From assembly GCA_037131245.1 (NCBI GenBank), contig JBAXRK010000006.1, positions 1-50,294 on the forward strand: 50,294 nucleotides of DNA. Reading direction: 5' to 3'. Positions 55-41,306 of this stretch are shown here, one piece after another. Source of the stretch: Candidatus Omnitrophota bacterium (GTDB lineage: Bacteria > Omnitrophota > Gorgyraeia > Zapsychrales > Fredricksoniimonadaceae). The notes under the pieces are model-generated. The model did no database searches. It worked only from the letters and a program-made list of their open reading frames with translations, and had not been told where the DNA came from. Position numbers and translations under genes: made by a program. The stretch's first letter is position 1. Each line of letters begins with the position of its first letter.

Positions 55-1178
55 ATATAAAGCGCTATGGGGGTAAAGGCGTATTAAAGGCTGTAGCAAA
101 TGTGAACGCTATTATTGCGAGGTCTTTTCAAAACAGAGATTTTTCTAGCCAGCGGGAACTGGACTATTTTTTAATAGAACTTGATGGGACCAAAAATAAG
201 GCTAAATTAGGCGCGAATGCGATTCTCGGTGTTTCTATGGCTTATGCCCGAGCAAAAGCACATTTCGAAAATATTCCTTTATATCAGTACTTAGGAAAAG
301 GCGATGCGGCCGTAATGCCCGTGCCATGTATGAATGTCATTAACGGCGGAAAACACGCCGACAATACGTTGGATTTTCAAGAGTTTATGATCGCGCCGCA
401 TCATGCGCCATCATTTACAGAGGCAATAAGAATGGGCGAAGATGTTTTTCATTCATTAAAATCAGTATTGAAAGCAAAAGGATTAAGTACGGGCGTTGGA
501 GATGAAGGCGGTTTTGCCCCAGATTTAAAATCGAATGAACAGGCGGTCGAAATGATCCTGGAGGCAATTACTAAGGCCGGGTACAAGCCTGGAACTGATG
601 TAAGTATATGTCTTGACCCTGCTGCCAGTGAAATGTGGGAGAACGGAAAGTACAAATTCTTCAAAAGCACTCAGAAGGTAGTATCGAGTGATGATATGGT
701 TAAACTTTGGGGAAGCTGGGTAAGCCAATATCCTATTGTTTTACTTGAGGATGGTTTAGCAGAGAACGACTGGGAGGGCTGGAAGAATCTTACTGATCTG
801 CTGGGGGAAAAGATCGAGATCGTAGGGGATGACATCTTTTGTACCAATAAGAGCATATTGGAAGAAGGAATAAGAAAGGGTGTTGCAAACTCGATCCTGA
901 TCAAACTTAATCAAATTGGGACGGTGACGGAAACACTGGAAACTATTGAAGTGGCTTACAAAAATTCATACAATTGCTTTGTTTCACATAGAAGTGGCGA
1001 AACAGTTGATTCCTTTATTTCAGACCTGACAGTGGCTGTCAATGCGGGGCATTTGAAGACAGGCAGCGGTTGTCGGGGGGAACGGGTTGAGAAGTTTAAT
1101 CAACTGATGAGGATCGAACATCAGTTAGGCGCTGCATCAACATTCGCAGGTATAAAGGCTTTTAAAAATTCAAAATGA
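55..1178 (+). pseudogene. eno: Enolase (phosphopyruvate hydratase), 5'-truncated
   Basis: Motifs KRYGGKGVLKAV, LGANAILGVS, NVINGGKHA, VGDEGGFAP, IKLNQIGT and SHRSGET are present. The N-terminal DSRGNPTVE/VPSGASTG/ELRD segment is missing; ORF 39..1178 starts with unrelated MLTLY. Confidence 0.8.
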
Positions 1179-1682: not shown

Positions 1683-2198
1683 ATGAAACATATTTTCTTA
1701 ATCCCAGCGGTGTTCTTTTCTGTGGCGACGGCCGCGATGGCGGCGACAGGTACGGCGCTGATCACGGGCACAGGAGCGGGGTCCAAGATCGGCGGTGTTG
1801 TCACTTTTACCGAGGCGAATGGAGGTCTGACGATCCAGGCTAATGTGGTCAATGCTCCACCCGGCCAGCACGGGATCCATCTTCATGAGAATGCCAGTTG
1901 CGCCGAGGGCGGCAAGGCGGCGGGCGGGCATTTTAATCCTGATAAGGTTGCCCATGGGTATTTACCAAAAGACGGTAAAGAACATGCGCATGCCGGCGAT
2001 ATGGGGAATATTGCTGTTGACGCCCAGGGTAAAGGCAGTCTTAGCGTGTTCATGCCCGGCCTGACGCTGGGCAAAGGCGAACATTCCGTGGCAGGAAAGT
2101 CGGTGATCCTCCATGAGAAATCCGATGATTTCGGCCAACCTACCGGGAATGCCGGCGGACGTATCGGGTGCGGGGTCATCGAGGTCGTCGGGCAATGA
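1683..2198 (+). CDS. sodC: Cu/Zn superoxide dismutase, secreted
   Basis: Signal peptide; HGIHLHE, GGHFNP, HAGDMGNI, VILHEKSDD and GNAGGRIGCGVI motifs; GGAGG RBS before ATG 1683. Confidence 0.95.
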   Translation: MKHIFLIPAVFFSVATAAMAATGTALITGTGAGSKIGGVVTFTEANGGLTIQANVVNAPPGQHGIHLHENASCAEGGKAAGGHFNPDKVAHGYLPKDGKEHAHAGDMGNIAVDAQGKGSLSVFMPGLTLGKGEHSVAGKSVILHEKSDDFGQPTGNAGGRIGCGVIEVVGQ

Positions 2199-2323
2199 TG
2201 TTTTCTGCTTGCCGGATCTTTATCGCGATTTTTATTTTTGGGATGATGTTGTCTTGTCCCGCCTATGCTACGACGGCAAATGAATATAACAGGTATAATT
2301 GCCCCAGAAATCTAGACCACTAA
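2195..2323 (+). pseudogene. 5' fragment of a TPR-protein paralog (42 aa)
   Basis: Translates MMFSACRIFIAIFIFGMMLSCPAYATTANEYN-RYNCPRNLDH*. It matches the N-terminus of 3027..3569 (LLNCPAYATTAKEYN), then diverges. ATGA overlap with the sodC stop. Confidence 0.65.
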
Positions 2324-2367
2324 AACAGCGGCCAGAGATATAATCTGATCACAATTAGGATGTCCAG

Positions 2368-3024
2368 ATGGCCAAAGGGTTTACCTTAGTTGAGATCATC
2401 GTTGTTATTATTATCCTAGGGACGCTGGGAACGATCGCGGTGCCCCGGCTTGCCCAGCAGCAAGAGTCCGCCAGGGCTGGGGAAGCTGTTCAATTATTGG
2501 ACATGCTGCATCGCTCGCAAGATCGATGGGCGATCGAGCATCCGGAAGGGGGCCTGACTGATTGCGCCTCTTTGGATGTGACGCCAAGGGTCGGGAATTT
2601 TAGCCCGCCTGTTTGTTCGGATACCAGGATAGACCTGACGCGTCAGGGTGGGAGTTATACGATCTCGGTAGATCCTTCCGGCTGCTATTTCTGTTCGGGG
2701 AATTGTCCGGGGACACTTGCCAAAACCCTGCCTGTCGGCCCTGGGTGTGAGCGTATCACTATTGTTACAGCGACCTTTGGCGGAAATTGTGGTGTCGCTG
2801 CCGGTAATGTGACAACTTCGGTGGCTGGATTGTGCGATGGGACCAAGTCCTGTTCCTTTATTGAATCGGGGCCTTTTTGTGGAGGTGGTTTCTTCCCGGA
2901 TCCTGTGGTTGGCTGTTACAAGGATTTTTCTGTCAATTATGTTTGTTCTGGCGGCGTTGGCAAATCAGCTTACGCTCCTGCGCACCAATGTGAAGGGGAT
3001 ATGGTTGCTCTTGCCTGTCCTTAA
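2368..3024 (+). CDS. Type IV pilin-like protein with C-terminal SUEL-like (galactose/rhamnose-binding) lectin domain
   Basis: Prepilin cleavage motif KG|FTLVE. The Cys-rich C-terminus ITIVTATFG...LCDGTKSCSF...FPDPVVGCYKDFSVNYVC resembles SUEL lectins. Confidence 0.8.
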   Translation: MAKGFTLVEIIVVIIILGTLGTIAVPRLAQQQESARAGEAVQLLDMLHRSQDRWAIEHPEGGLTDCASLDVTPRVGNFSPPVCSDTRIDLTRQGGSYTISVDPSGCYFCSGNCPGTLAKTLPVGPGCERITIVTATFGGNCGVAAGNVTTSVAGLCDGTKSCSFIESGPFCGGGFFPDPVVGCYKDFSVNYVCSGGVGKSAYAPAHQCEGDMVALACP

Positions 3025-3026
3025 GG

Positions 3027-3569
3027 ATGCCCATGTGTTTTAATTTCGTTATGGTAGTGGCTTTTCTTCTTGGCGGGCTGCTCTTGAATTGTCCTGCTTA
3101 TGCCACAACAGCAAAGGAGTACAATGTAAGCGGGCTTGCTTATGGGGAAGAAGGCCAATTCCCCCAGGCTATCGCCGCGTTCACTCAAGCGATCGTGATG
3201 GATCCTAATTTCGAAAAAGCCTACAACAACAGGGGGGTTGTTTACTATAAACAAGGTGATATAACGCACGCCATCTTTGATTTTGACGAGGCGCTCGCGA
3301 TTAACCCTGATTATGTGGATGCGTATTGTAATCGCGGCCTGGCTTATGGCAAGCAGGGGGAATCAGCACAGGCGATCATTGATTTTACCAAGGCGATCCA
3401 GACGGATGTGATGTTTACCAAGGCTTATGTGAACCGCGCGGTGGCGTATTTTGACGCGCAGGATTATGACAATGCCTGGGCCGATGTGCACCGGGCGGAA
3501 CAATTGGGGAATATCATCAGTCCGGGGTTCCTGGATGCTTTGAAAAAGGAGTCGGGACGGGATAAATGA
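3027..3569 (+). CDS. Secreted tetratricopeptide repeat protein
   Basis: Signal peptide; repeated AYNNRG/AYCNRG/AYVNRA TPR units. Confidence 0.9.
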   Translation: MPMCFNFVMVVAFLLGGLLLNCPAYATTAKEYNVSGLAYGEEGQFPQAIAAFTQAIVMDPNFEKAYNNRGVVYYKQGDITHAIFDFDEALAINPDYVDAYCNRGLAYGKQGESAQAIIDFTKAIQTDVMFTKAYVNRAVAYFDAQDYDNAWADVHRAEQLGNIISPGFLDALKKESGRDK

Positions 3570-4171
3570 ACCTGCTCACCCCCAAAATGATTTTTAGCAC
3601 GGTCATGTGCGATGAGCGGACTTGCTTGTGGTTCAGGCGGTTGCTGTTACAACCGATGGTTGTGGAGCGCCTTAAGGGTTCGCCCGTGGCCGGGAGTGGC
3701 ATGGGGCAATATCGGCTCCATACAGGGCTTACGGCGGCAGTGCTTGTTTTAGCGGCAGGCCTATTTTTAACAGGGATATTCTTTTTCCATGGTCATGTGA
3801 TCATTTGGGCTGCTATCGCAGCTGTTGCGGTTATCGGTTCTGTCCCGCTCATGATCAGGGCACGTCGCGGTCTGGCGGCACTGGCGGTTGACCTTTATAC
3901 GCTCGATCAGGAGGCTATTCCGGCCGGGGCGACGCTTTATCAGTTGGGCGAATTCTACGCGCGGAAGTATGGTGGGCCGTCGCTGGTCCAGGTGATCTGG
4001 GTATGGGATCAGGTGCTCAGGGATGCTCTTTTGCTTTTATTTGTGATGACGTTAGGCGTTTATTTCCTGCCGGCGTGGCTGTCTTTCTTCCTGATCGCGG
4101 GGGGTTGCGGCGTGGTAGCGTGCGTGGTTAAAGTGGTTCTTCTTAAGGGTGGTAGTAAACGATCTCCATGA
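3566..4171 (+). CDS. Hypothetical membrane protein (paralog of 21868..22476)
   Basis: About four hydrophobic segments; ATGA coupling to the TPR gene; shares motifs with 21868..22476. Confidence 0.7.
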   Translation: MNLLTPKMIFSTVMCDERTCLWFRRLLLQPMVVERLKGSPVAGSGMGQYRLHTGLTAAVLVLAAGLFLTGIFFFHGHVIIWAAIAAVAVIGSVPLMIRARRGLAALAVDLYTLDQEAIPAGATLYQLGEFYARKYGGPSLVQVIWVWDQVLRDALLLLFVMTLGVYFLPAWLSFFLIAGGCGVVACVVKVVLLKGGSKRSP

Positions 4172-6101
4172 CGATCCCCAAGGCCAGCAGGATCCGTCCT
4201 GTCAGGGATGTGGTGAAGAGGAAAAAGAAAGAGATCAGTGAGAACGCGTTCTGAAGGAACCAGGAGCTTTTGAGCCGGGGGGTTTCCACCACCTGGCGGA
4301 AAAGGTCATATTGGCGCCAGTTAAGGTTGAGTAGTTTTTCATCGTTGACGCATTCATCGAAGTAGCGCGACCCCGGTAGGGGCGTCAGGAAGGTTACGAC
4401 GGTAAAGGCCGGCGATAGCCTGAAACAGAACCACCATAACCGCAGTAGCGAGCGCCAGGAATCCCCCGGAAAACCGAAAATAAATTGCCCCTGGATCAGG
4501 AGCCCTTTCTGTTTTAGTTTCTTTGTCAGTTCCATGTAATTCTTGGCATGGGCGAATTTCCCTTTCATGTCGGTCGTTGACCCTGCGTCGATCTCGTAGC
4601 CGATCAATAACTGAAAACAGCCAGATTCTTTCATGAGGCGCAGGGCTTCGTCGTCTTTAGCAATATCAATACTGGTAGAGCCTGCCCACAAGCATCTTAG
4701 CGGCTTCATGGCGCCAAAAAGTTCTTTCGCGTAGTCCGGGTCTTCATAAATATTATTGTCGATGAAGGTCACCGGCATTCTCGCGGCGGCTACTTTTTCA
4801 ATGAGGGGAAGCAGGTCGGCGACCGTTTTCTTGACCTGGACGCCTTTAGACAGGGCGGTGGCGCTGCAGAAATAGCAGTTGAATTTACACCCCGGGCTAG
4901 CCTGCAGGCAGTCATTGATGATCCCGGGTGGTTCTTTAAGCATGAATTGGTGAACGCGCAGGGAATCTTCTGTTCTGCAGCGGCCTTGATAGAGGCGTTG
5001 GAGGCGGTTGTTCTCGTAATCGCTGATGATCTCGGCCCAGACGCTTTCCGCCGGCCCCACCACAACGCTATCGCAGAATTCGAGCGCTTCCTCAGGGAAG
5101 AAGGTGACGTGCGGGCCGCCGAGGATGACGTTGGCTCCCCGCTTCCGGAATTCGCCAGCCATCTGGTAGGCGGCGGCACAGTTCGTGGTAAAACAGGTGA
5201 TAGCGACCAGTGCCTTATCCCGGTAAAAATGTTCCCGCCAGGTCACCCGGTTGTATTCGATGATCCGATAGTCGGCGGGTGTCAGGGCTTTAAGCACGGT
5301 AAAGAAGGGAGGATAGCGGCGCATGACGACCGGTGAAAAAGCTTCGGCCCGCAGGCTGCCGGCCGAGGGATTGATCAGGATCAGCGTTTTGGGAGAGTTG
5401 AAGTGTTCGGCTACTTCCGGATAGGCCGCCGAGAATATGGAAGCGGACAGGGAGAAGATCAGAAAATGGTTCAGGTTTTGCAGGATCTCAATGAGCGGGT
5501 TGATGAGTGGAAGATTCCAGGTTTTCACGCTGAGCCAGTGCAAGCCCAGCGAAAGCAGTGTGAACATTATCCCGTAGATAACCAGGCCGCCCGACCAGAA
5601 AATATCATTGATAGGGCGCTGGCACAAATGTTTGTATTTGATCTTGAAGAATTCGCCCGCGGCCCAGTAAGCGATAAAAACATAAAGGAGGCAGGTCAGG
5701 AGCGCAATAGAATAAGTTTCCTGTCCGGTAAGCAGGAATACCAGTATATGAACGATCCAGGGGATCAAGAGGGCGGTGGCTACGATCCACCAGCCCTTGG
5801 CCAGGTTGGATCTGAAGTTTTCCAGCCGCGGGATAGGGCTCTCTCCGGCTACGATCTCAACAATAAGCCCCCAGAGCCAGCACATAAGAACAGCTCCGGC
5901 AATACGCTGAAGACCCGGGTCGACGATCGTATAGAAAGGGCGTGGCGCGCCCCATGACCGGGTAAAGCCGACATGGTCGAGAAAATATAGGGCCATGGCT
6001 GGTACCCAGAGGGTGCCGGCGATCTGGATCGCTCGTTTGAGGGGCTGCGTTTCTCCGGGCATTGGTGTTTTCAAGATACTTGATGTTACCGGCGTCGTCA
6101 A
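4143..6101 (-). CDS. B12-binding radical SAM enzyme with N-terminal multi-TM domain
   Basis: Hydrophobic N-terminal ~230 aa; B12-binding-like VAITCFTT...VILGGPHVT...VVVGPAE; CKFNCYFC radical SAM motif. The exact start is uncertain. Confidence 0.88.
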   Translation of the reverse strand: MTTPVTSSILKTPMPGETQPLKRAIQIAGTLWVPAMALYFLDHVGFTRSWGAPRPFYTIVDPGLQRIAGAVLMCWLWGLIVEIVAGESPIPRLENFRSNLAKGWWIVATALLIPWIVHILVFLLTGQETYSIALLTCLLYVFIAYWAAGEFFKIKYKHLCQRPINDIFWSGGLVIYGIMFTLLSLGLHWLSVKTWNLPLINPLIEILQNLNHFLIFSLSASIFSAAYPEVAEHFNSPKTLILINPSAGSLRAEAFSPVVMRRYPPFFTVLKALTPADYRIIEYNRVTWREHFYRDKALVAITCFTTNCAAAYQMAGEFRKRGANVILGGPHVTFFPEEALEFCDSVVVGPAESVWAEIISDYENNRLQRLYQGRCRTEDSLRVHQFMLKEPPGIINDCLQASPGCKFNCYFCSATALSKGVQVKKTVADLLPLIEKVAAARMPVTFIDNNIYEDPDYAKELFGAMKPLRCLWAGSTSIDIAKDDEALRLMKESGCFQLLIGYEIDAGSTTDMKGKFAHAKNYMELTKKLKQKGLLIQGQFIFGFPGDSWRSLLRLWWFCFRLSPAFTVVTFLTPLPGSRYFDECVNDEKLLNLNWRQYDLFRQVVETPRLKSSWFLQNAFSLISFFFLFTTSLTGRILLALGIVMEIVYYHP

Positions 6102-34098: not shown

Positions 34099-34124
34099 GC
34101 CTTATGGCAATACCGGATGTATTC

Positions 34125-34156
34125 AAAAGCGCGGGGGTCATGCCCCGCGCTTTTTT
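34125..34156 (+). terminator. Hairpin/terminator overlapping the start of the next gene
   Basis: AAAAGCGCGGGG-GTCATG-CCCCGCGCTTTT; the loop contains ATG 34140. Confidence 0.55.
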
Positions 34157-36062
34157 ATTGGGGATGCTTTGCGCGGCGGCGCAGGTGCTTTTTTTTCGGG
34201 AGCTCCTTGCCTGCCTGTATGGCAATGAACTGCTTTTTACGGGATTGATGGCGGCCTGGTCCGTGGGGATCGCCGGCGGCAGTGCGTGGGGCCGCCGGAT
34301 CGGGAGCGGTTGGCCAGTCCTTTTATTGGGGGTTGCCCTTTTTTCCTGGGATATTTGGGCTTGCCGCCATGTCCGGGGTTTGCTGGGTTGGCCGGTTGGC
34401 GTGTCAGGAGACATCTTACCGTCTTTGCTGGTGTCGGTAATCCTGGTGTTCCCGCCGGCTTTTATCCTCGGAGGGTATTTTGCGGCTTTGGCGGCGGGAC
34501 AGTTGAAAAAGCCGGGGACGCGGATCTACGCGGCCGAAACGCTGGGTTTTGCGGCCGGGGCTTTGCTGATGGTGGTCTTTTTCCTCAGCCCGTTTTCGCA
34601 GGTGAGCGTAGCGTCGCGGAGCCCTCAATGGCCTGGTTATAAGGTGGTCGCGGCCCGCGAGACGCCGCTGGCCTCGTTCGTGGTGGCTGAGCGTCAGGGA
34701 GAGACGAGCCTTTTTGAGAGCGGTTTACTTGTGGCGACGACCCACGACCGCTTGACGGCGGAGGAAAGCGTTCATTACGCCTTGCTGGCGCATCCGTCGC
34801 CAAAGAGGGTCCTGTTGATCGGCGGTGCGGCGACCGGGGCGGTCGAGGAGGCGATAAAGCATCCAGGTTTGAAAGTGGATGTTCTTGAGCCTGATCGGGT
34901 GGTGTTTGATTTGGCCCGCACTTATTTCCCGGATGCGGCAAAGGCGCTATTGGATCCGCGGGTCCGAGCCATTATGGCGGATGGCCGCCGCTTGCTGAGG
35001 ACGTCGCGGGAAAGATACGACGCGGTGATCGTTTTGGTCGGGGATCCGTGTACATTGCTGGCCAACAGGTACTATACGGCTGATTTTTTTGTTGATGTGA
35101 AGGCCCATCTTTCGCCGGGCGGGATGATGTCGGTGGCCCTTTCGGCGTCTGAGAATTATGTGAATGAAGAGGGCCGCGCGGCTCTGGGAGGGATACGCTC
35201 AACGCTCGCTTCTGTTTTTGAAGCGGTCAGGGTTATTCCCGGTGGAAAATATATTTTTCTTGCCGCCAGCCGTCCGGGGGATATTTCTATTGAGCCGGGG
35301 GTCCTGGCGGAGCGCCTTAAGGCCCGGGGTATTCAAAGTCTGTTCGTTCGCCCGGAATATTTTAATGAACGGCTGGGGGCCTATCGGGTAAAAGAGGCTG
35401 CGGACGTGGTGAGCGGGGGTCATCCTGTTAACCGGGATATTCGTCCGGCGGAATTGGTTGGGGCGCTTTCGTACTGGGCGTCGCAGTCCGGGTCGGCCTT
35501 TCCCCGGATCACGGCCTGGTTCCGGACTTTTGGCCTTTGGTTGTGGATTGTTCCTTTCCTGGTTTTTCTTGTTACACGGTTTAACCGGGGCGCGGCGGCG
35601 CCCTTCGTGGCGGGGTTCGGCCAGATGCTTTCTCAGACGGTTTCAGTGGCGCTGTTCCAGAGTGTGTTCGGGAATATTTATAGCCTGGTTGGCCTGCTGA
35701 CAGCTGGCGTGATGCTGGGGCTTTTTGTCGGGGCCAGGGAACATTCAAGGGGACACGGGCCATCGCCTTTCTTAGCCGGGGCCTTGTTGTTCACGGCCGC
35801 GGCGGTTATTGTGCCCTTGATCGCCGGCAATGATCTGTTGGCCGGAGGGTTCTTCGCGGTTTTTCCTTTCCTGGCGGGGTTATATGGCGGCCGGCAATTT
35901 ACATCGGCGGTGACCGGTGAACGTACCGGTGCGGCGTATACGATGGATGTTCTGGGTTCCGGGCTCGGGGCGCTGCTGGGAGGCCTTTTCCTGATCCCTT
36001 TCTGGGGCATCCCCCAGGCGCTGCTTTTCGCCGCGGCGATGCAACTGGCGCTATCCTTTTAG
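34140..36062 (+). CDS. Fused membrane (MFS-like halves) / spermidine-synthase-like protein
   Basis: N- and C-terminal TM blocks (QVLFFRELL...YGNEL; YTMDVLGSGLGA); central EESVH, VLLIGG, DGRRLL, GDP and NRYYT. The start may be 34104. Confidence 0.8.
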   Translation: MPRAFLLGMLCAAAQVLFFRELLACLYGNELLFTGLMAAWSVGIAGGSAWGRRIGSGWPVLLLGVALFSWDIWACRHVRGLLGWPVGVSGDILPSLLVSVILVFPPAFILGGYFAALAAGQLKKPGTRIYAAETLGFAAGALLMVVFFLSPFSQVSVASRSPQWPGYKVVAARETPLASFVVAERQGETSLFESGLLVATTHDRLTAEESVHYALLAHPSPKRVLLIGGAATGAVEEAIKHPGLKVDVLEPDRVVFDLARTYFPDAAKALLDPRVRAIMADGRRLLRTSRERYDAVIVLVGDPCTLLANRYYTADFFVDVKAHLSPGGMMSVALSASENYVNEEGRAALGGIRSTLASVFEAVRVIPGGKYIFLAASRPGDISIEPGVLAERLKARGIQSLFVRPEYFNERLGAYRVKEAADVVSGGHPVNRDIRPAELVGALSYWASQSGSAFPRITAWFRTFGLWLWIVPFLVFLVTRFNRGAAAPFVAGFGQMLSQTVSVALFQSVFGNIYSLVGLLTAGVMLGLFVGAREHSRGHGPSPFLAGALLFTAAAVIVPLIAGNDLLAGGFFAVFPFLAGLYGGRQFTSAVTGERTGAAYTMDVLGSGLGALLGGLFLIPFWGIPQALLFAAAMQLALSF

Positions 36063-36199
36063 CCGGCCAGCGAATCCGGGCTGCGGTAATAAAGGGCTTC
36101 TTTCATTCCCGGCTTTTGCGGCAGGGCATTGATCTTTCCCCCGAAAAAGAACGCCAGAAGCGCGGCCAAACTTGTTTTTAAAAAGTGACGGCGGTCCAT
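36059..36199 (-). CDS. Small Tat-signal peptide (46 aa), not in ORF track
   Basis: GGAG RBS; starts 1 nt after the amrS stop. MDRRHFLKTSLAALLAFFFGGKINALPQKPGMKEALYYRSPDSLAG* has the twin-arginine RRxFLK motif and a hydrophobic core. Confidence 0.75.
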   Translation of the reverse strand: MDRRHFLKTSLAALLAFFFGGKINALPQKPGMKEALYYRSPDSLAG

Positions 36200-36200
36200 A

Positions 36201-37175
36201 TCAGCTCCATATTCCCGGGATCGGTACCTGGCAGTATCCGCATTTGCCGTTGTTCAGGTGGTTTTCCAGTATCTGATACCCGTAGCGCTTGAGGATGATC
36301 CTGCGGCAGGACGGGCATTGGGTATTATTGCCCGGATGATCAGGAATATTCCCCACATAAACATAGTCCAGCCCTTCGGCCTTCGAGATATCCCAGGCGC
36401 GTGACAGGGTGCTTTCGGGCGTCGGCGGCAGGTTCTGCAGTTTGTGCATCGGCCAGAAACGGGAAAGATGCAGGGGCGTGTCTTTTCCCATGTTCTCTTT
36501 GACCCAGCGGGCCAGCGCGCGGATGTCATCATCGCTGTCATTCCAGGTGGGGATCACCAGATTGATGATCTCCACCCAGACACCCTGTTTTTTCATGGTG
36601 AGCAGGGCATCCTGGACGGGCTTGAGCGTGGCATTGCACATTCTTTTATAAAAGTCATCAGTGATCCCTTTAAGGTTCACGCTGGCGGCATCGGTCACTT
36701 TGCATAATTCGAGCAGCGGGTCCTGTTCAATGTATCCGGCGGTAACAATGATATTCTTGATGTCCTTTTCCCTGGCTTGGCGCGCGGTGTCGAGCGTGTA
36801 TTCGTAGAAAACGATCGGCTCTGAGTAGGTATAGGCAATAGAGCGGCAGTTATTGGCACCGGCCTGAGCCACGACATTCTCCGGGGAGAGAGTCGCATTG
36901 CGTGTCTCTTCCGGCGGACTTTGGGATATTTCCCAGTTCTGGCAGTAAAGGCAGTGCAGATTACAGCCCGCCGTCGCAATCGAGAAAGCGTTTGTGCCCG
37001 GCAACATATGGAAAACTGGTTTCTTTTCGATCGGGTCAACGTGTACGGCGCAGGGGTTCCCGTAAACGAGTGAGAAAAGCTTTCCGTCGACATTCGTGCG
37101 GACGCGACAATCACCCCGTTGGCCCTGGGCGAGCTTGCAATGGCGAGGGCATAAGGTGCATTCGATTTTTTTCAT
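36201..37175 (-). CDS. amrS: AmmeMemoRadiSam system radical SAM enzyme
   Basis: CTLCPRHC...GDCRVR, VDPIEKKP, GCNLHCLYCQNWEISQ, YTYSEP and C-terminal CPSC...CGYC. Confidence 0.92.
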   Translation of the reverse strand: MKKIECTLCPRHCKLAQGQRGDCRVRTNVDGKLFSLVYGNPCAVHVDPIEKKPVFHMLPGTNAFSIATAGCNLHCLYCQNWEISQSPPEETRNATLSPENVVAQAGANNCRSIAYTYSEPIVFYEYTLDTARQAREKDIKNIIVTAGYIEQDPLLELCKVTDAASVNLKGITDDFYKRMCNATLKPVQDALLTMKKQGVWVEIINLVIPTWNDSDDDIRALARWVKENMGKDTPLHLSRFWPMHKLQNLPPTPESTLSRAWDISKAEGLDYVYVGNIPDHPGNNTQCPSCRRIILKRYGYQILENHLNNGKCGYCQVPIPGIWS

Positions 37176-37378
37176 AGGGCTTTCCAGTAGCTTGCCGGAT
37201 GAAGGTTCAATCCATGAGCGGTGAATCCGGCTATTAAATCTTTAGAAGAGGGCAAAGGCCCGCCTTCTTCTATTATTGCGCGGTCGCGTAGGAACGAGAC
37301 GGTATTGCCAAGTGTGCCTGCGCCTAGAAGGAGCGTCGCAGCGATCAGGATGGCTGTAAATGGTTTATTGGTTGCCAT
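37172..37378 (-). CDS. Small membrane-anchored/exported peptide (68 aa)
   Basis: N-terminal hydrophobic helix; ends GLNLHPASYWKAL; stop overlaps the amrS ATG (ATGA). Confidence 0.65.
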   Translation of the reverse strand: MATNKPFTAILIAATLLLGAGTLGNTVSFLRDRAIIEEGGPLPSSKDLIAGFTAHGLNLHPASYWKAL

Positions 37379-38555
37379 AAGGACACTTTAACACAAAACA
37401 GCTTGTTGCGTTCTTTGGAGTGCGGCACTCTTTAAGGCATTCGCCGCAAAGGATGCATTCCGTCATATCCACCGTCCATAAACCTGCTGGAGTTTTTTCG
37501 ATGGCTTGTGTCGGGCATTTTGCCGCGCAAAGCCCGCAGCTGCTGCATTCTTTAGAGGGGGCCGGTTTGAAGAGGCTCCAGCGGGCAACGAGCCCAGTTA
37601 ATGCGCCAACGGGGCAAAGATAAAGGCACCAGAAACGGAAATAAAAAAGGCTTATGACGAGGATTAGCCCCAGCAGGCACCAGGCGAGGCATGTGCCGTG
37701 AAGGGTGAAGAGCGTGATAAAGGGCTCAATATTCGCTGGCGCGGCATTGCCGACAGTCAGGCACAGGCCGATAAGGATGATGGCGATCAGGTATTTGACG
37801 GTTTTTGCTGTCCTTATTTGCTCTGGCGGGATGGCCTTCGGAAGGAGCCTCTTGGGGAGTGTGATCGCCAGGAGTTCCTGGACCAATGCCAGAGGGCATA
37901 AGCTTCCGCAATAGATCCTTCCTATAAACAAAGCCGGGATGAAGCCGATGATCAGGCAAATCAGCCACAGGATATTGATGTCAAGCCCGGGCGTATGGAG
38001 CGTGGCGGCATTGATGACCTGGATGATCGATAGCATGGAGCGTTCGATCAGGCCGAAATATATAAATCCGCCGAGCATGGCCAGCCAGCGCAGGGCGGTG
38101 TTTTTGAGAAGCAGCGCCGCGAGCGCCAGGGACAGCAGCAGAAAAGCAGGGATCGCCGGGAGTAGCGAGACCGGTTCGGATGCTGTTGATGGCGTAGGGC
38201 GTAAACGTTCACGCACGGCCCTCGTTATTCCCGCGCTGGTGATGGTCGCGCGGGTAATGCCGTCAATATCTTCTCCGAGGGTCAAGGCGCTGCCGGGGCC
38301 TTTGCCGATGAACTGGCCAAGGAAAGTCCCCAGGTCACCGATATAAGAGGGGGTTTCATTATGCGCCAATACCCGGAGGCTTGTGATATGCTGTTCCTGA
38401 TCCGTGGTCAGGATAATGGCGATCGTTCCGCCGTAACCCCTGGCCCGGAGGGCGTCTTTGTTAAAGGTTCCGGTAGAGGCTTCGCGCTTAAGCGAAATGC
38501 CCAGGCATAAGGCCAGCAAGGTGATCGACAGCAGGGTCACGTATCGGTAACGCAT
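37365..38555 (-). CDS. FMN-binding + polyferredoxin membrane protein (NosR/NirI/YccM-like)
   Basis: GYGGTI...HNETPSY...DGITRATITS FMN_bind domain; GRIYCGSLCP and RFWCLYLCP; two CxxCxxCxxxC motifs. Confidence 0.85.
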   Translation of the reverse strand: MRYRYVTLLSITLLALCLGISLKREASTGTFNKDALRARGYGGTIAIILTTDQEQHITSLRVLAHNETPSYIGDLGTFLGQFIGKGPGSALTLGEDIDGITRATITSAGITRAVRERLRPTPSTASEPVSLLPAIPAFLLLSLALAALLLKNTALRWLAMLGGFIYFGLIERSMLSIIQVINAATLHTPGLDINILWLICLIIGFIPALFIGRIYCGSLCPLALVQELLAITLPKRLLPKAIPPEQIRTAKTVKYLIAIILIGLCLTVGNAAPANIEPFITLFTLHGTCLAWCLLGLILVISLFYFRFWCLYLCPVGALTGLVARWSLFKPAPSKECSSCGLCAAKCPTQAIEKTPAGLWTVDMTECILCGECLKECRTPKNATSCFVLKCPYGNQ

Positions 38556-38571
38556 GGGCTTATTTTAGCAT

Positions 38572-38590
38572 ATCGAGAAAGTTTCTCGAT
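38572..38590. promoter_or_regulatory. Perfect palindrome, candidate operator
   Basis: ATCGAGAAA-G-TTTCTCGAT; the half-site ATCGAGAAA recurs at 38665-38673. Confidence 0.55.
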
Positions 38591-38624
38591 TCTCCGACGG
38601 GAATAAAAAGGATGAATAATTATC

Positions 38625-38653
38625 TTGCCAACGCATTGCTGCGTTCCTATAAT
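38625..38653 (+). promoter_or_regulatory. sigma70-type promoter of the hydrogenase operon
   Basis: TTGCCA-N17-TATAAT. Confidence 0.7.
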
Positions 38654-38727
38654 CGATTCTCTCAATCGAGAAATCATTCATCATTAACGTTCGTGTGTTC
38701 GGGGCTCTATATTGAAAGAGGATCGGT

Positions 38728-39210
38728 ATGGTCGTTGATACGATAGACGAAGATGTCAAGAAGGTAGTGGAGCGCTGGAAGGATAAACGGGGCAACCTGA
38801 TCATGGTCTTGCACGATGTCCAGGATCATTACGGGTTTGTGCCACGCGCAGCCGCGCTGGAGGTATCGCGCCAGCTCGATGTGCCGCTGGCCCGCATTTA
38901 TGAAGTGCTGACGTTTTACAATTTTTTTAAGCTTCAGGCGCCGGGTAAGTTCAATATTTCAGTTTGCCTTGGTACGGCTTGTTATTTGAAGGGCGCGACG
39001 GCTTTGATCGACGAGATCCGGCACCTGCTGCATGTTGAGGAAGGCCATACGACCAAGGATGGTCTTTTTCATTTGCAGATCGTGCGTTGCCTGGGGTGCT
39101 GCGGGTTGGCGCCGGTCATCACGGTGGAAGGGAAAGTTTATAGCGCGGTCAAAAGAAGCGACGTGGTCGGTATCATTGCGGAACATTCAAATCAGAAGGC
39201 CGAGGTCTAA
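38728..39210 (+). CDS. hydC: [FeFe]-hydrogenase NuoE-like subunit (HydC/HndA)
   Basis: TFYNFF, VCLGTACYLKG and RCLGCCGLAP [2Fe-2S] motif. Confidence 0.92.
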   Translation: MVVDTIDEDVKKVVERWKDKRGNLIMVLHDVQDHYGFVPRAAALEVSRQLDVPLARIYEVLTFYNFFKLQAPGKFNISVCLGTACYLKGATALIDEIRHLLHVEEGHTTKDGLFHLQIVRCLGCCGLAPVITVEGKVYSAVKRSDVVGIIAEHSNQKAEV

Positions 39211-39212
39211 AT

Positions 39213-39554
39213 ATGGGCATCACACAACAGGATCTTCTTCAATTGAAGGAAAAATCCCTCAAGGATGCGCCGAAGAACTGGATACGCGTTGGATACAGTA
39301 CTTGCGGCGTCGCGGCGGGAGCGGACGTGGTTTATAAGGTCCTGGCGGAGGAAGTGGCGGCCAGGGGTCTTTCCGTAGAAGTCAAGAAATGCGGGTGTGT
39401 GGGGCTTTGCTCAGCTGAGCCGCTCGTTGAGGTCAATGTTGAGGGGGCGCCTCATGTTTTTTACGGCAAGGTTAACAAGGAAGTCGCCCACAAGATCATG
39501 GAAGAGCATGTCTGCCAGAAGAAGCTGGTGGAAAATCATATTTTTGAAATGTAG
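39213..39554 (+). CDS. Thioredoxin-like [2Fe-2S] ferredoxin subunit (HydD/HndB)
   Basis: VGYSTCGVAAGA...CGCVGLCSAEPLVEV. Confidence 0.88.
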   Translation: MGITQQDLLQLKEKSLKDAPKNWIRVGYSTCGVAAGADVVYKVLAEEVAARGLSVEVKKCGCVGLCSAEPLVEVNVEGAPHVFYGKVNKEVAHKIMEEHVCQKKLVENHIFEM

Positions 39555-39572
39555 TCTTAACGAAAGAATGAT

Positions 39573-41306
39573 ATGAAACAGATCTTGATCCAGGATACGA
39601 ACGGAAACCTGCGCAAGGAGTTGAGGGATTTTCACATCGCGCTGACCAGCCAGTTGCGTGAGCGCGGCCTGTCAGAGGCGGCACAGGTACTGACGGTGGC
39701 TGATATCGGTATTTATCAAAAAGGCATTGTCGCCAAGATCCTTCCTGAAGGGTTCATCTATGGTTCCCTTCAGATCAAAGATATCGCCGAGATCATCGAG
39801 AAGACGGTTCAGAAGGGCGAGAAGGTCCAGGCGCTGGCTATTGACCGGAAAAACAAGCAGATGCGGATCGTTTTGCGTAATTGCGGCCGTATTAACCCCG
39901 AGAGTTTTGAGGATTACGCGGGTTGCGATGGCTATCAGGGGCTGGCGAAGGCTCTTGAAATGGGCCCCGAGAAGGTGATCGAGGAAATGAAGAAGGCCGG
40001 TTTGCGCGGGCGCGGCGGCGCGGGGTTTCCCACCTGGATGAAATGGAACATCACTCGTGGAGTGGCGGGAGCGGTCAAATATATTATTTGCAACGGCGAT
40101 GAGGGCGATCCGGGTGCGTATATGGACCGTTCGGTGCTGGAAGGTGATCCTCATTCCGTTATCGAGGGGCTCATGATCGGCGGGCTCGCGATCGGGGCCA
40201 ATCAGGGCTTCTTCTACATAAGGGCGGAGTATCCGTTGGCCATTGAGCGTATCCAGAAAGCTCTTAATGAGTGTTATGTCCGGGGGATCCTGGGAAAGAA
40301 CATCCTGGGGAGTAATTTTAATTTTGATATCGAGATCCGCTTGGGTGCCGGAGCTTTCGTGTGCGGCGAAGAGACGGCCCTTATCGCTTCCGTTGAAGGC
40401 TTGCGGGGATATCCGCGGCCGCGCCCTCCGTTCCCGTCGGTTAAAGGCCTGTGGGGTAACCCGACGGCCATTAATAACGTAGAGACACTGGCCAGCGTGC
40501 CGTATATTTTTCTGCACGGCGGAGAGGCTTTCGGGAAGATCGGCGTTGAGGGTTCCACCGGAACCAAAGTGTTCGCGCTCACCGGCAAGGTCCGCAATTC
40601 CGGCCTGGTTGAGGTCCCGATGGGGATCACCTTGCGTGAAGTCGTCTTTGATATTGGCGGCGGTGTTTTGAATAATCAGAGCATCAAGGCCATCCAGACC
40701 GGCGGGCCATCAGGCGGCGTTATTCCGGAGCAGTTCTTTGATACGCCTATTGGTTACGAAAGCTTGCAGAAGCTGGGGTCCATCATGGGGTCCGGCGGGA
40801 TGATCGTGCTCGATGTGAACGATTGCATGGTCGATATTTCAAAATTCTATCTTGGGTTCTGCGTTGATGAGTCGTGCGGGAAGTGCGCGCCTTGCCGGAT
40901 CGGCGGCACCCAGATGCTTGAGATCCTTAAGAGGATATCCGAGGGTAAGGGCGTGGACGATGACCTCAAGAAGCTTAATGAGATCGCCATGGCTATGCAG
41001 AAGGCGTCTTTGTGCGGGTTGGGGCAGACGGCGCCGAACCCGGTGCTTTCCACCTTGAAGTATTTTGAGGCGGAGTATAAGGCTCATGTGGTCGACCGGA
41101 AGTGCCCGGCCGGCAAGTGCGCCAGTTTAACATCGTATTCCATTACGAAAGAAAAATGTACTGCCTGCGGCATGTGCGCGCGGGTGTGTCCGGCGGATGC
41201 CATCACCGGAAACCGGGCGGATAAATATGTGATCAACGCTGAGAAATGCATTAGCTGCGGCCAGTGTTACGAGGTGTGCAAGTTCGCCTCGGTTCTTCGT
41301 CAATAA
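39573..41306 (+). CDS. hydB: [FeFe]-hydrogenase NuoF-like diaphorase subunit (HydB/HndC)
   Basis: GLRGRGGAGFPT, NGDEGDPGAYMDRS, GAGAFVCGEET, GGPSGG, ESCGKCAPCRIG and a C-terminal 2x[4Fe-4S] domain. Confidence 0.95.
   Translation: MKQILIQDTNGNLRKELRDFHIALTSQLRERGLSEAAQVLTVADIGIYQKGIVAKILPEGFIYGSLQIKDIAEIIEKTVQKGEKVQALAIDRKNKQMRIVLRNCGRINPESFEDYAGCDGYQGLAKALEMGPEKVIEEMKKAGLRGRGGAGFPTWMKWNITRGVAGAVKYIICNGDEGDPGAYMDRSVLEGDPHSVIEGLMIGGLAIGANQGFFYIRAEYPLAIERIQKALNECYVRGILGKNILGSNFNFDIEIRLGAGAFVCGEETALIASVEGLRGYPRPRPPFPSVKGLWGNPTAINNVETLASVPYIFLHGGEAFGKIGVEGSTGTKVFALTGKVRNSGLVEVPMGITLREVVFDIGGGVLNNQSIKAIQTGGPSGGVIPEQFFDTPIGYESLQKLGSIMGSGGMIVLDVNDCMVDISKFYLGFCVDESCGKCAPCRIGGTQMLEILKRISEGKGVDDDLKKLNEIAMAMQKASLCGLGQTAPNPVLSTLKYFEAEYKAHVVDRKCPAGKCASLTSYSITKEKCTACGMCARVCPADAITGNRADKYVINAEKCISCGQCYEVCKFASVLRQ

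Follow-up and report, generated by a model that had tools for sequence, protein, structure and literature searches.

The 50,294-nucleotide stretch of DNA analyzed here (the window) encodes, at 36059..38555 on the minus strand, a conserved Omnitrophota cassette in which AmrS, the radical S-adenosylmethionine (SAM) enzyme of the AmmeMemoRadiSam system, is split at the turn of its first β-hairpin. Judged by alignment, two small proteins encoded on either side of it each carry a copy of the missing first strand, β1, with the pattern L-x-x-A-x-[FY]-[YW], and in one of them, a protein of ~50 amino acids (aa) with a twin-arginine translocation (Tat) signal, this copy is the only part that looks mature. 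The reading that we favor, to which we assign a probability of roughly 0.5, is that AmrS would be exported by Tat hitch-hiking on this mini-protein and docked on the tail of a NosR-like membrane protein, from which it would receive electrons. The split, its conservation, the homology of the peptides to the N terminus of unsplit (cis) AmrS proteins, the predicted strand insertion, and the topology logic were all computed here. The names of homologues assign the organism to Candidatus Omnitrophota, and its genome (G000), from a freshwater metagenome, amounts to 1.69 Mb on 18 contigs and is 74% complete.

The open reading frame (ORF) calls and their translations give four tightly packed ORFs, each lying where the first-pass annotation had placed it in a minus-strand operon. 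The stop of the 68-aa ORF overlaps the start of amrS by ATGA, and the 46-aa ORF begins 1 nucleotide (nt) past the amrS stop. The features of the locus, with the evidence for each, are the following:

37365..38555, minus strand: NosR/NapH-like membrane flavo-FeS protein, 396 aa (Pfam and NCBIfam matches)
37172..37378, minus strand: single-pass membrane peptide, 68 aa, ending LHPASYWKAL at 37175..37204 (ORF; alignment A2)
36201..37175, minus strand: AmrS core, an AmmeMemoRadiSam radical SAM enzyme without β1, 324 aa (TIGR04337, Pfam Radical_SAM)
37107..37160, minus strand: N-terminal Cys cluster of AmrS, C6/C9/C13/C23 (invariant in alignment A4)
36942..36965, minus strand: radical-SAM CX3CX2C motif of AmrS, C71/C75/C78 (invariant in alignment A4)
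36059..36199, minus strand: mini-protein of Tat signal plus β1, 46 aa (TIGR01409; alignments A1 and A3)
36176..36196, minus strand: twin-arginine motif DRRHFLK of the 46-aa ORF (sequence motif)
36077..36112, minus strand: predicted AmrS-binding segment of the 46-aa ORF, residues 30 to 41, PGMKEALYYRSP (complex model)
34104..36062, plus strand: polytopic SpeE-like membrane protein with a central PABS domain, 652 aa, convergent on the cassette (Pfam Spermine_synth, 1.7e-19)

By its core, AmrS reads as a member of its family from which the first strand has been detached. It scores 380.1 bits on TIGR04337, for which the cut-off is 220, and matches Pfam Radical_SAM at 2.5e-19; both the CX3CX2C motif and the N-terminal CX2CX3C...C cluster are present. 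The protein starts with MKKIECTLCP, and its match covers positions 11 to 333 of the 349 in TIGR04337, so that positions 1 to 10, which form β1, are absent and the match is less than full length. Unsplit relatives match this model from positions 1 to 3 and carry there the segment x-[FY]-[YW]-x-K-[LI]-D. These profile matches confirm that the N terminus is clipped, as had been proposed from the sequence alone, and that the motif is a general N-terminal feature of AmrS proteins. Among solved structures the sole match was PflA (3.5e-12), and there was no solved AmrS.

Comparison between genomes shows the split to be genuine and old. An amrS orthologue was found in 19 of 41 related genomes (57 to 100% identity) in open frames of 327 to 382 aa, and the best 120 of 7997 database homologues are 311 to 341 aa long. 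The relatives also hold a second, canonical group of AmrS paralogues, 41 to 46% identical, with longer frames and an N-terminal G-[RK]-[FY]-W segment of their own. In the window, the amrS frame has a stop codon 22 codons upstream of the start. Depending on the genome, the upstream peptide sits in either of the two other frames relative to amrS, and at one locus (L014) it lies ~160 nt away. The variable frame of the peptide, together with its one position ~160 nt away, excludes two causes for the split, namely a sequencing error and a programmed frameshift by which the 68-aa ORF would be read into amrS. A sequencing error is further rejected by the upstream stop, by the frame lengths of the orthologues and homologues, and by a second (Logan) assembly, identical over 35900-38700 at a depth of 13.6, which derives from the same sample and is not independent. 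The concern that 37172..37378 and amrS might be one broken gene was therefore not borne out, given the variable frames and the homologue lengths.

Unsplit proteins of the same phylum reveal what the small ORFs correspond to. Searching 251 Omnitrophota genomes with the Tat-peptide profile returned 23 matches at E≤1e-7, five of them inside open frames of 377 to 406 aa. These five (5 of the 251 genomes) are AmrS proteins of 376 to 400 aa in which a Tat signal is followed by [KR]-E-A-x-[FY]-Y-x-K-[IL]-D and then by TVQCxLCP, and they match TIGR04337 from position 2. In alignment A5 the separate (trans) Tat peptides extend from the signal through the KEAxYY strand, the strand after it is where the clipped cores start, and the tails of the anchor peptides (HPASYWKAL, VEAKHWQKI) align with the same KEAxYY strand. 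The split parts are thus colinear with an unsplit Tat-signal AmrS, and both peptides are, on this alignment, homologous to the N terminus of the cis proteins and represent that N terminus in detached form. This bears out the idea that the N-terminal strand of AmrS resides on the two peptides.

Genome G234 offers a plausible intermediate on the way to the gene order of the window: two unsplit Tat-signal amrS genes stand there in tandem (L068, G234:C29:1400-7600, ORFs 4304..3171 and 3226..2036, minus strand), directly downstream of tatC at a distance of 48 nt. Given this tandem, the order of the window, core and then Tat signal with strand, is what such a pair would leave after reciprocal loss. 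TatC is encoded in all five genomes with cis proteins, and in three of them it lies 48 nt, 2.6 kb, and 4.8 kb from amrS. Further cis Tat-AmrS proteins are P0276, P0284, P0286, and P0292. As a separate observation, many long AmrS homologues, among them P0274 to P0276, P0284, P0286, P0292, and P0305, contain intein/LAGLIDADG domains (PF14528, PF14890) inside the radical SAM domain, and several of these intein-bearing homologues also carry cis Tat signals.

The association of AmrS with the Tat peptide was explored by modelling the complex, with an alignment of 118 rows for AmrS and one of 149 rows for the peptide. The median ipSAE interface score was 0.91 over three runs, whereas none of three controls scored above 0.01. 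At least 83% of contacts were common to the runs, and the partner had a predicted local confidence (pLDDT) of at least 50. The mark used for this score is reached by 58 of 80 solved complexes and by 2 of 110 mismatched pairs, counts that apply only approximately here, as the alignments were self-made. In the model, peptide residues 30 to 41 contact AmrS residues 2 to 8, 26, 31 to 40, 88, 93, 95, 124 to 126, 128, 150, 152 and 153, and 156. The KEALYY segment forms a strand between AmrS residues 2 to 8 and 31 to 40, with peptide residue 35 paired to AmrS residue 8 and residue 38 to residues 5 to 7, as the antiparallel hairpin partner of the first AmrS strand. No modelled contact of the peptide involves the radical-SAM Cys region (residues 71 to 78). 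Since no solved AmrS exists, the result is not the memory of a known complex, and the model may be completing a fold known from unsplit family members. The model supports the binding of the Tat peptide by AmrS: strand complementation, which had been put forward for both small proteins, is predicted here for the Tat peptide, with KEALYY inserted and the controls passed.

The 46-aa ORF begins with MDRRHFLK and ends with KEALYYRSPDSLAG. Tat signals follow the consensus R-R-x-F-L-K, then a moderately hydrophobic stretch and then a basic residue, and the DRRHFLK peptide conforms to it. The ORF scores 17.4 bits on TIGR01409, above the cut-off of 16.7, and 20.1 bits on Pfam TAT_signal (PF10518), below the cut-off of 22.7. 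In an alignment of 16 neighbors (A1), R3, F6, A35, Y38, and the C-terminal G46 are invariant; across 150 sequences (A3), R3, F6, and A35 remain invariant, and Y38, L44, and the C-terminal G46 vary hardly at all. When 1.84 billion representatives were searched with the profile, 176 members emerged at E≤1e-3, of which 47 reached E≤1e-10. The best 150 of the 176 are 42 to 92 aa long and nearly all terminate where the profile ends; 27 of the 150 match TIGR01409, and 9 match TIGR02811 at E≤0.01, a model that the window peptide does not match. No long or fused form appeared among these best 150, nor in a word search, the latter being weak evidence. The six-frame scan of the 251 genomes did find the cis forms on AmrS.

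Six-frame scans of the 41 relatives revealed strong full-length matches (E≤2.7e-10) in 17 of them. All 17 share the strand of the amrS orthologue and lie immediately downstream of it, and the 22 genomes without an amrS orthologue have no strong match. Weaker matches span the signal part only and lie mostly inside long ORFs. The proportion of nonsynonymous differences (pN) was below that of synonymous ones (pS) in 105 of 105 pairs, which is weak support, as synonymous sites are near saturation. Taken together, conservation and placement indicate that the Tat peptide is a genuine small-protein family under constraint. Both peptides are conserved next to amrS across genera, families, and classes, in line with the search for short ORFs that had been recommended. 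At another locus (L071, G176:C56), ORF 2945..2748 on the minus strand encodes a 65-aa Tat-signal peptide ending DLKEARYYEPI; it is flanked by a stand-alone, signal-less Memo gene and an amrB-amrA-like gene, and the 6 kb covered contain no amrS.

On the other side of amrS, the 68-aa ORF encodes one hydrophobic helix. Among 12 stand-alone homologues (A2), G56 and W65 are invariant and the motif reads GLxLH[PE][AG]KYWK; pN was below pS in 66 of 66 pairs, again near saturation. Of the 19 orthologue loci, 12 have this motif at the end of a stand-alone transmembrane (TM) peptide. Another 4 (L010, L012, L013, and L015) have it behind an additional TM helix as the C terminus of the NosR-like protein, and 2 (L018 and L020) as the C terminus of a single-pass FMN_bind protein; in 1 (G012) it was not found. 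The NosR-like carriers with a strand tail are membrane proteins of 450 to 490 aa. The placement of an anchor strand on the 68-aa peptide, noted earlier, is thus correct for the window, and elsewhere the strand is the C-terminal tail of a larger protein.

The NosR/NapH-like protein starts with an anchor, continues with FMN_bind and a NapH-type membrane part that contains two CX3CP motifs, and ends in a 2x[4Fe-4S] ferredoxin domain, the architecture of a flavinylated carrier of this type. It matches Pfam FMN_bind at 1.5e-13, Fer4_5 at 2.1e-13 (in two stretches), and the Fer4 families. The NCBIfam matches to NapH/MauN (5e-22) and NosR (4.4e-19) are both far below the cut-offs, so the protein is neither NosR nor NapH itself. 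Its gene is kept upstream of amrS in the loci of relatives. There are two ApbE genes in G000, and the flavinylation site reads T-R-A-T in the window and TGAT or SGAT in relatives; we take the ApbE motif to be [ST]-G-A-[ST]. Natural fusions of AmrS with three types of module, NapH-like, DsbD_2, and FMN_bind, agree with the suggestion that the NosR-like protein could supply electrons to AmrS. In P0296, P0298, and P0300, the strand and AmrS follow FMN_bind directly with no helix between, and genome G037 (98% complete) encodes a covalent FMN_bind-NapH-TM-AmrS fusion with six helices between FMN_bind and AmrS. Another set of natural fusions (P0271 to P0273, P0282, P0285, P0287, P0289, P0294, P0295, and P0299) has the order Sec-Memo-AmrS or TM-AmrS-AMMECR1-Memo, Sec denoting a general secretion signal.

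The side of the membrane was assigned by hand from hydropathy and the positive-inside rule, using counts of uncharged stretches and loop charges, together with the topology described for NosR and NapH. In NosR-type proteins the FMN domain lies outside and the ferredoxin domain inside. The hydropathy profile of the NosR-like protein shows the anchor, FMN_bind, five helices, and the ferredoxin domain. In L010, L012, L013, and L015 an extra helix follows the ferredoxin domain, preceded by basic and followed by acidic or neutral residues, and the tail of these four fused forms would therefore return to the outer side. In L018 and L020 the anchor strand comes directly after FMN_bind with no intervening helix. 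Because of the four fused forms, these two loci, and the covalent fusions, the anchor strand would always be on the FMN_bind side, and the anchor β1 should accordingly be on the outer side of the carrier, as far as this can be read from sequence.

As for the translocation machinery, TatC is present in 38 of the 41 relatives and in 4 of 4 congeners. The AmrS-clade genomes G012 and G037, in which neither TatA nor TatC was found, also lack the Tat peptide. G000 encodes a Rieske-type protein with the Tat signal VSRRDFLK, followed by a cytochrome b gene (L074, G000:C2:121300-122600, ORF 497..952, plus strand), so the organism has a classical Tat cargo even though its assembly contains neither tatA nor tatC. 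For the source sample, two metatranscriptome runs contained hardly any matching words and no contigs on the stretch, which is uninformative either way.

The other components of the pathway are encoded elsewhere in the genome. It had been stated that the window holds no amrA or amrB, and this is so, but a fused amrB-amrA gene lies on contig C9 of the same genome, unlinked to amrS (G000:C9:24410-25900; L003:1402-2895, plus strand). Its 497-aa product matches Memo and AMMECR1 with 185 and 181 bits, so that AmrA and AmrB accompany AmrS in one genome. It starts with a Sec-type signal peptide (MRSMPGLKLKLFLIFLGLCVMGRPSFA|DN), as do the products of 30 of 30 loci in relatives, and the fusion occurs in 39 of 41 genomes, including ones without an AmrS match.

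The most constant neighbor of amrS in this clade is the SpeE-like protein, whose PABS domain resembles spermidine synthase. It adjoins amrS in 16 of 20 AmrS-clade loci of relatives and accompanies it in all 7 class-level loci that have amrS; in L069 and L070 the two genes abut and share a strand. The Atlas assigns the protein to a PABS-domain membrane family that is uncharacterised, and by loop-charge count, a heuristic, its PABS domain faces outward. The SpeE-like membrane protein is possibly a further conserved partner, and one might speculate that it is a candidate for the SAM logistics of the AmrS clade. Divergent from the cassette, the window encodes at 38728..41306 on the plus strand a NuoE-like protein (160 aa), a Cys-rich protein (113 aa), and a NuoF-like protein (577 aa), which may serve as a source of low-potential electrons. 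Genome G012 has its bare amrS core immediately next to the homologous region.

From these features we infer that AmrS is exported, that the anchor strand docks it, that electrons flow to it, and what its substrate might be. AmrS would fold and be loaded with its iron-sulfur (Fe-S) clusters, and perhaps with SAM, in the cytoplasm, where the KEAxFY strand of the Tat mini-protein would slot between AmrS residues 2 to 8 and 31 to 40. The complex would then be exported through Tat with AmrS as the hitch-hiker. Outside, AmrS would share a side of the membrane with the FMN domain of the NosR-like protein and be held there by the anchor β1, either through exchange with the pilot strand or as a second population of AmrS. 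Electrons would cross the membrane within the NosR-like protein, entering at the ferredoxin domain in the cytoplasm and reaching AmrS by way of the FMN domain, and the partner of AmrS outside would be the Sec-exported AmrB-AmrA fusion. The proposal that the peptides give the strand in trans, as membrane anchor or Tat adaptor, agrees with the colinearity, with the complex model for the Tat peptide, and with its strict adjacency to amrS. A wider version, in which the whole AmmeMemoRadiSam pathway is extracytoplasmic, pilot-exported AmrS plugs through the same strand slot onto the outer NosR-like tail, and the SpeE-like protein supplies or handles the SAM-derived nucleoside there, is put forward only tentatively.

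A number of points weigh against export. A radical SAM enzyme normally uses up SAM at each turnover, and we know of no source of SAM outside the cytoplasm. The topology on which the argument leans is heuristic and in part carried over from NosR and NapH. Neither TatA nor TatC was found in the 74% complete assembly of G000, and they were likewise not found in the far more complete G037, whose fusion should place AmrS outside; most fusions of the G037 type have no twin-arginine motif before the last TM helix. P0271 to P0273 begin with a Sec-type signal followed by Memo, the strand, and AmrS, and P0282-type proteins with an N-terminal TM helix and the strand followed by AmrS-AmrA-AmrB; no known route could provide such proteins with Fe-S clusters if they left the cytoplasm unfolded. 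In G012 the core stands bare, without peptides, NosR-like protein, or SpeE-like neighbor, and there is no Tat match. In G004, a genome of the same genus that has TatC, the anchor peptide occurs without a Tat peptide, the contig being 2.9 kb long. G143 and G067 encode a split AmrS and a Tat peptide but have neither a NosR-like nor an anchor gene close by, so that a hand-off from pilot to anchor is not general and would be at best lineage specific.

In an account that we consider somewhat doubtful but worth keeping in view, strand complementation takes place without export: both peptides would give β1 to an AmrS at the cytoplasmic face, the TM peptide as a tether and the Tat-like mini-protein as an assembly factor, regulator, or targeting piece. 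SAM, the Fe-S assembly machinery, and low-potential reductants are all cytoplasmic; P0282, P0285, P0299, and P0271 to P0273 have plain TM anchors or Sec-type signals with no twin-arginine, the covalent fusion of G037 comes without detected Tat genes, and charge counts around the stand-alone TM peptides are ambiguous. Such an arrangement sits poorly with the strand that follows a TM helix after the ferredoxin domain, taken as cytoplasmic from the topology of NosR and NapH, in L010, L012, L013, and L015, and with its direct continuation from FMN_bind in L018, L020, P0296, P0298, and P0300. Full-length AmrS proteins carry cis Tat signals of good consensus, with tatC beside amrS in G234, and AmrB-AmrA is Sec exported. 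A cytoplasmic radical SAM enzyme would have no need of NapH-like, DsbD-like, and FMN_bind transmembrane modules.

It had also been suggested that the peptides are substrates recognized through the motif, and this now appears unlikely. AmrS would bind them by mimicry of its missing strand, in the way that peptide maturases take up leader strands, and modify the conserved Tyr or the C-terminal Gly, the Tat peptide being exported as the product. Conserved small ORFs beside a radical SAM enzyme, with A35 invariant and Y38 and G46 nearly so, would fit such a role; PflA, the only solved relative, represents enzymes that act on Gly loops of proteins, and the sections of PMC7159879 on predicted peptide-processing systems place in them radical SAM domains related to those of Memo-AMMECR1 systems. 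Identical residues stand in cis at the N terminus of unsplit AmrS, within the family profile, so a structural role explains them, and the modelled contacts of the peptide avoid radical-SAM Cys residues 71 to 78. No SPASM domain was found in the Pfam and NCBIfam scans, and the anchor copy is often the tail of a 450- to 490-aa membrane protein. Least credible by far is an artifact or decay, with the 68-aa ORF and amrS as one broken gene and the 46-aa ORF as the dying remnant of a tandem amrS. The ATGA overlap and a run of seven A's (A7) at the junction could be read in that way, and a tandem cis amrS as in G234 would explain the gene order as a relic. This is countered by the varying frame relation, by the 19 orthologues of 327 to 382 aa and the best 120 homologues of 311 to 341 aa, by a Tat peptide that stays open with invariant positions at near-saturated synonymous divergence and in 176 clusters, and by the lack of an indel in the second assembly of the source reads.

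The cassette resembles several known systems and differs from each. It shares with AmmeMemoRadiSam (AmrS with AmrA/AMMECR1 and AmrB/Memo), for which we know of no function, a 380-bit core, both Cys motifs, and amrB-amrA in the genome; here, however, β1 is encoded by two small genes of its own, the amrB-amrA fusion is not linked to amrS and bears a Sec signal, and NosR-like and SpeE-like membrane proteins are added. In Tat hitch-hiking, a signal-less subunit rides on a signal-bearing partner, as the hydrogenase large subunit does on the small one and DmsB on DmsA. A signal-less folded Fe-S protein paired with a twin-arginine partner, with binding predicted, is likewise seen here, but the carrier would be a signal plus one β-strand that completes the fold of the cargo, derived from a split cis Tat-AmrS, with a radical SAM enzyme as its cargo. 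Members of the "formate dehydrogenase region TAT target" family TIGR02811, too, are proteins of ~50 to 70 aa in which a Tat signal precedes a short, conserved C terminus, and their genes adjoin that of a redox enzyme. The window peptide differs in not matching that model, in a C-terminal KEAxFY...LAG segment homologous to the AmrS N terminus, and in having amrS rather than formate dehydrogenase as neighbor.

Radical-SAM maturases of ribosomally synthesized and post-translationally modified peptides (RiPPs) have adjacent precursor peptides, and the peptide binds as an added β-strand. Small conserved ORFs by a radical SAM gene and a peptide modelled as an added β-strand are common to both. In our case the conserved peptide residues are the enzyme's own N terminus in unsplit relatives, the modelled peptide lies away from the SAM cluster, and there is no SPASM domain or RiPP recognition element (RRE) among the Pfam and NCBIfam matches of the window proteins, which sets the cassette apart from such maturases.

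NapH-like, DsbD-like, and FMN_bind proteins are described as extracytosolic electron-transfer components in the portions of Meheust et al. (2021; PMC8238504) that concern them. The architecture of FMN_bind, Fer4_5, and ferredoxin domains, ApbE in the genome, and the proposed delivery of electrons to an outer partner are shared with the systems set out there; here the partner would be a radical SAM enzyme, and the NosR-like protein can gain a C-terminal TM helix and a docking strand. The terms "radical SAM," "Memo," and "AMMECR1" are absent from the main text of that paper, whose supplementary gene-cluster tables may hold such neighborhoods. In the literature at large we found no description of an exported, periplasmic, extracytoplasmic, or secreted radical SAM enzyme or of these peptides, supplementary gene-cluster lists being outside the search, and AmmeMemoRadiSam seems to be mentioned only in passing.

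Because radical SAM enzymes depend on SAM, on Fe-S assembly, and on electrons of low potential, they are regarded as strictly cytoplasmic. This view would be challenged by a clade that has its Tat signals in cis or on a pilot, transmembrane electron modules, and a Sec-exported Memo-AMMECR1; if the proposal is true, this would be the first extracytoplasmic radical SAM system. For the Tat field, the mini-protein would be a minimal natural carrier of signal plus one strand, reusable as an export adaptor. The split would also exemplify a protein divided at a hairpin, with one core taking alternative N-terminal modules. The cassette offers a handle on a system without assigned function that includes homologues of the human disease-linked MEMO1 and AMMECR1, and it suggests that the substrate may be found on the envelope side.

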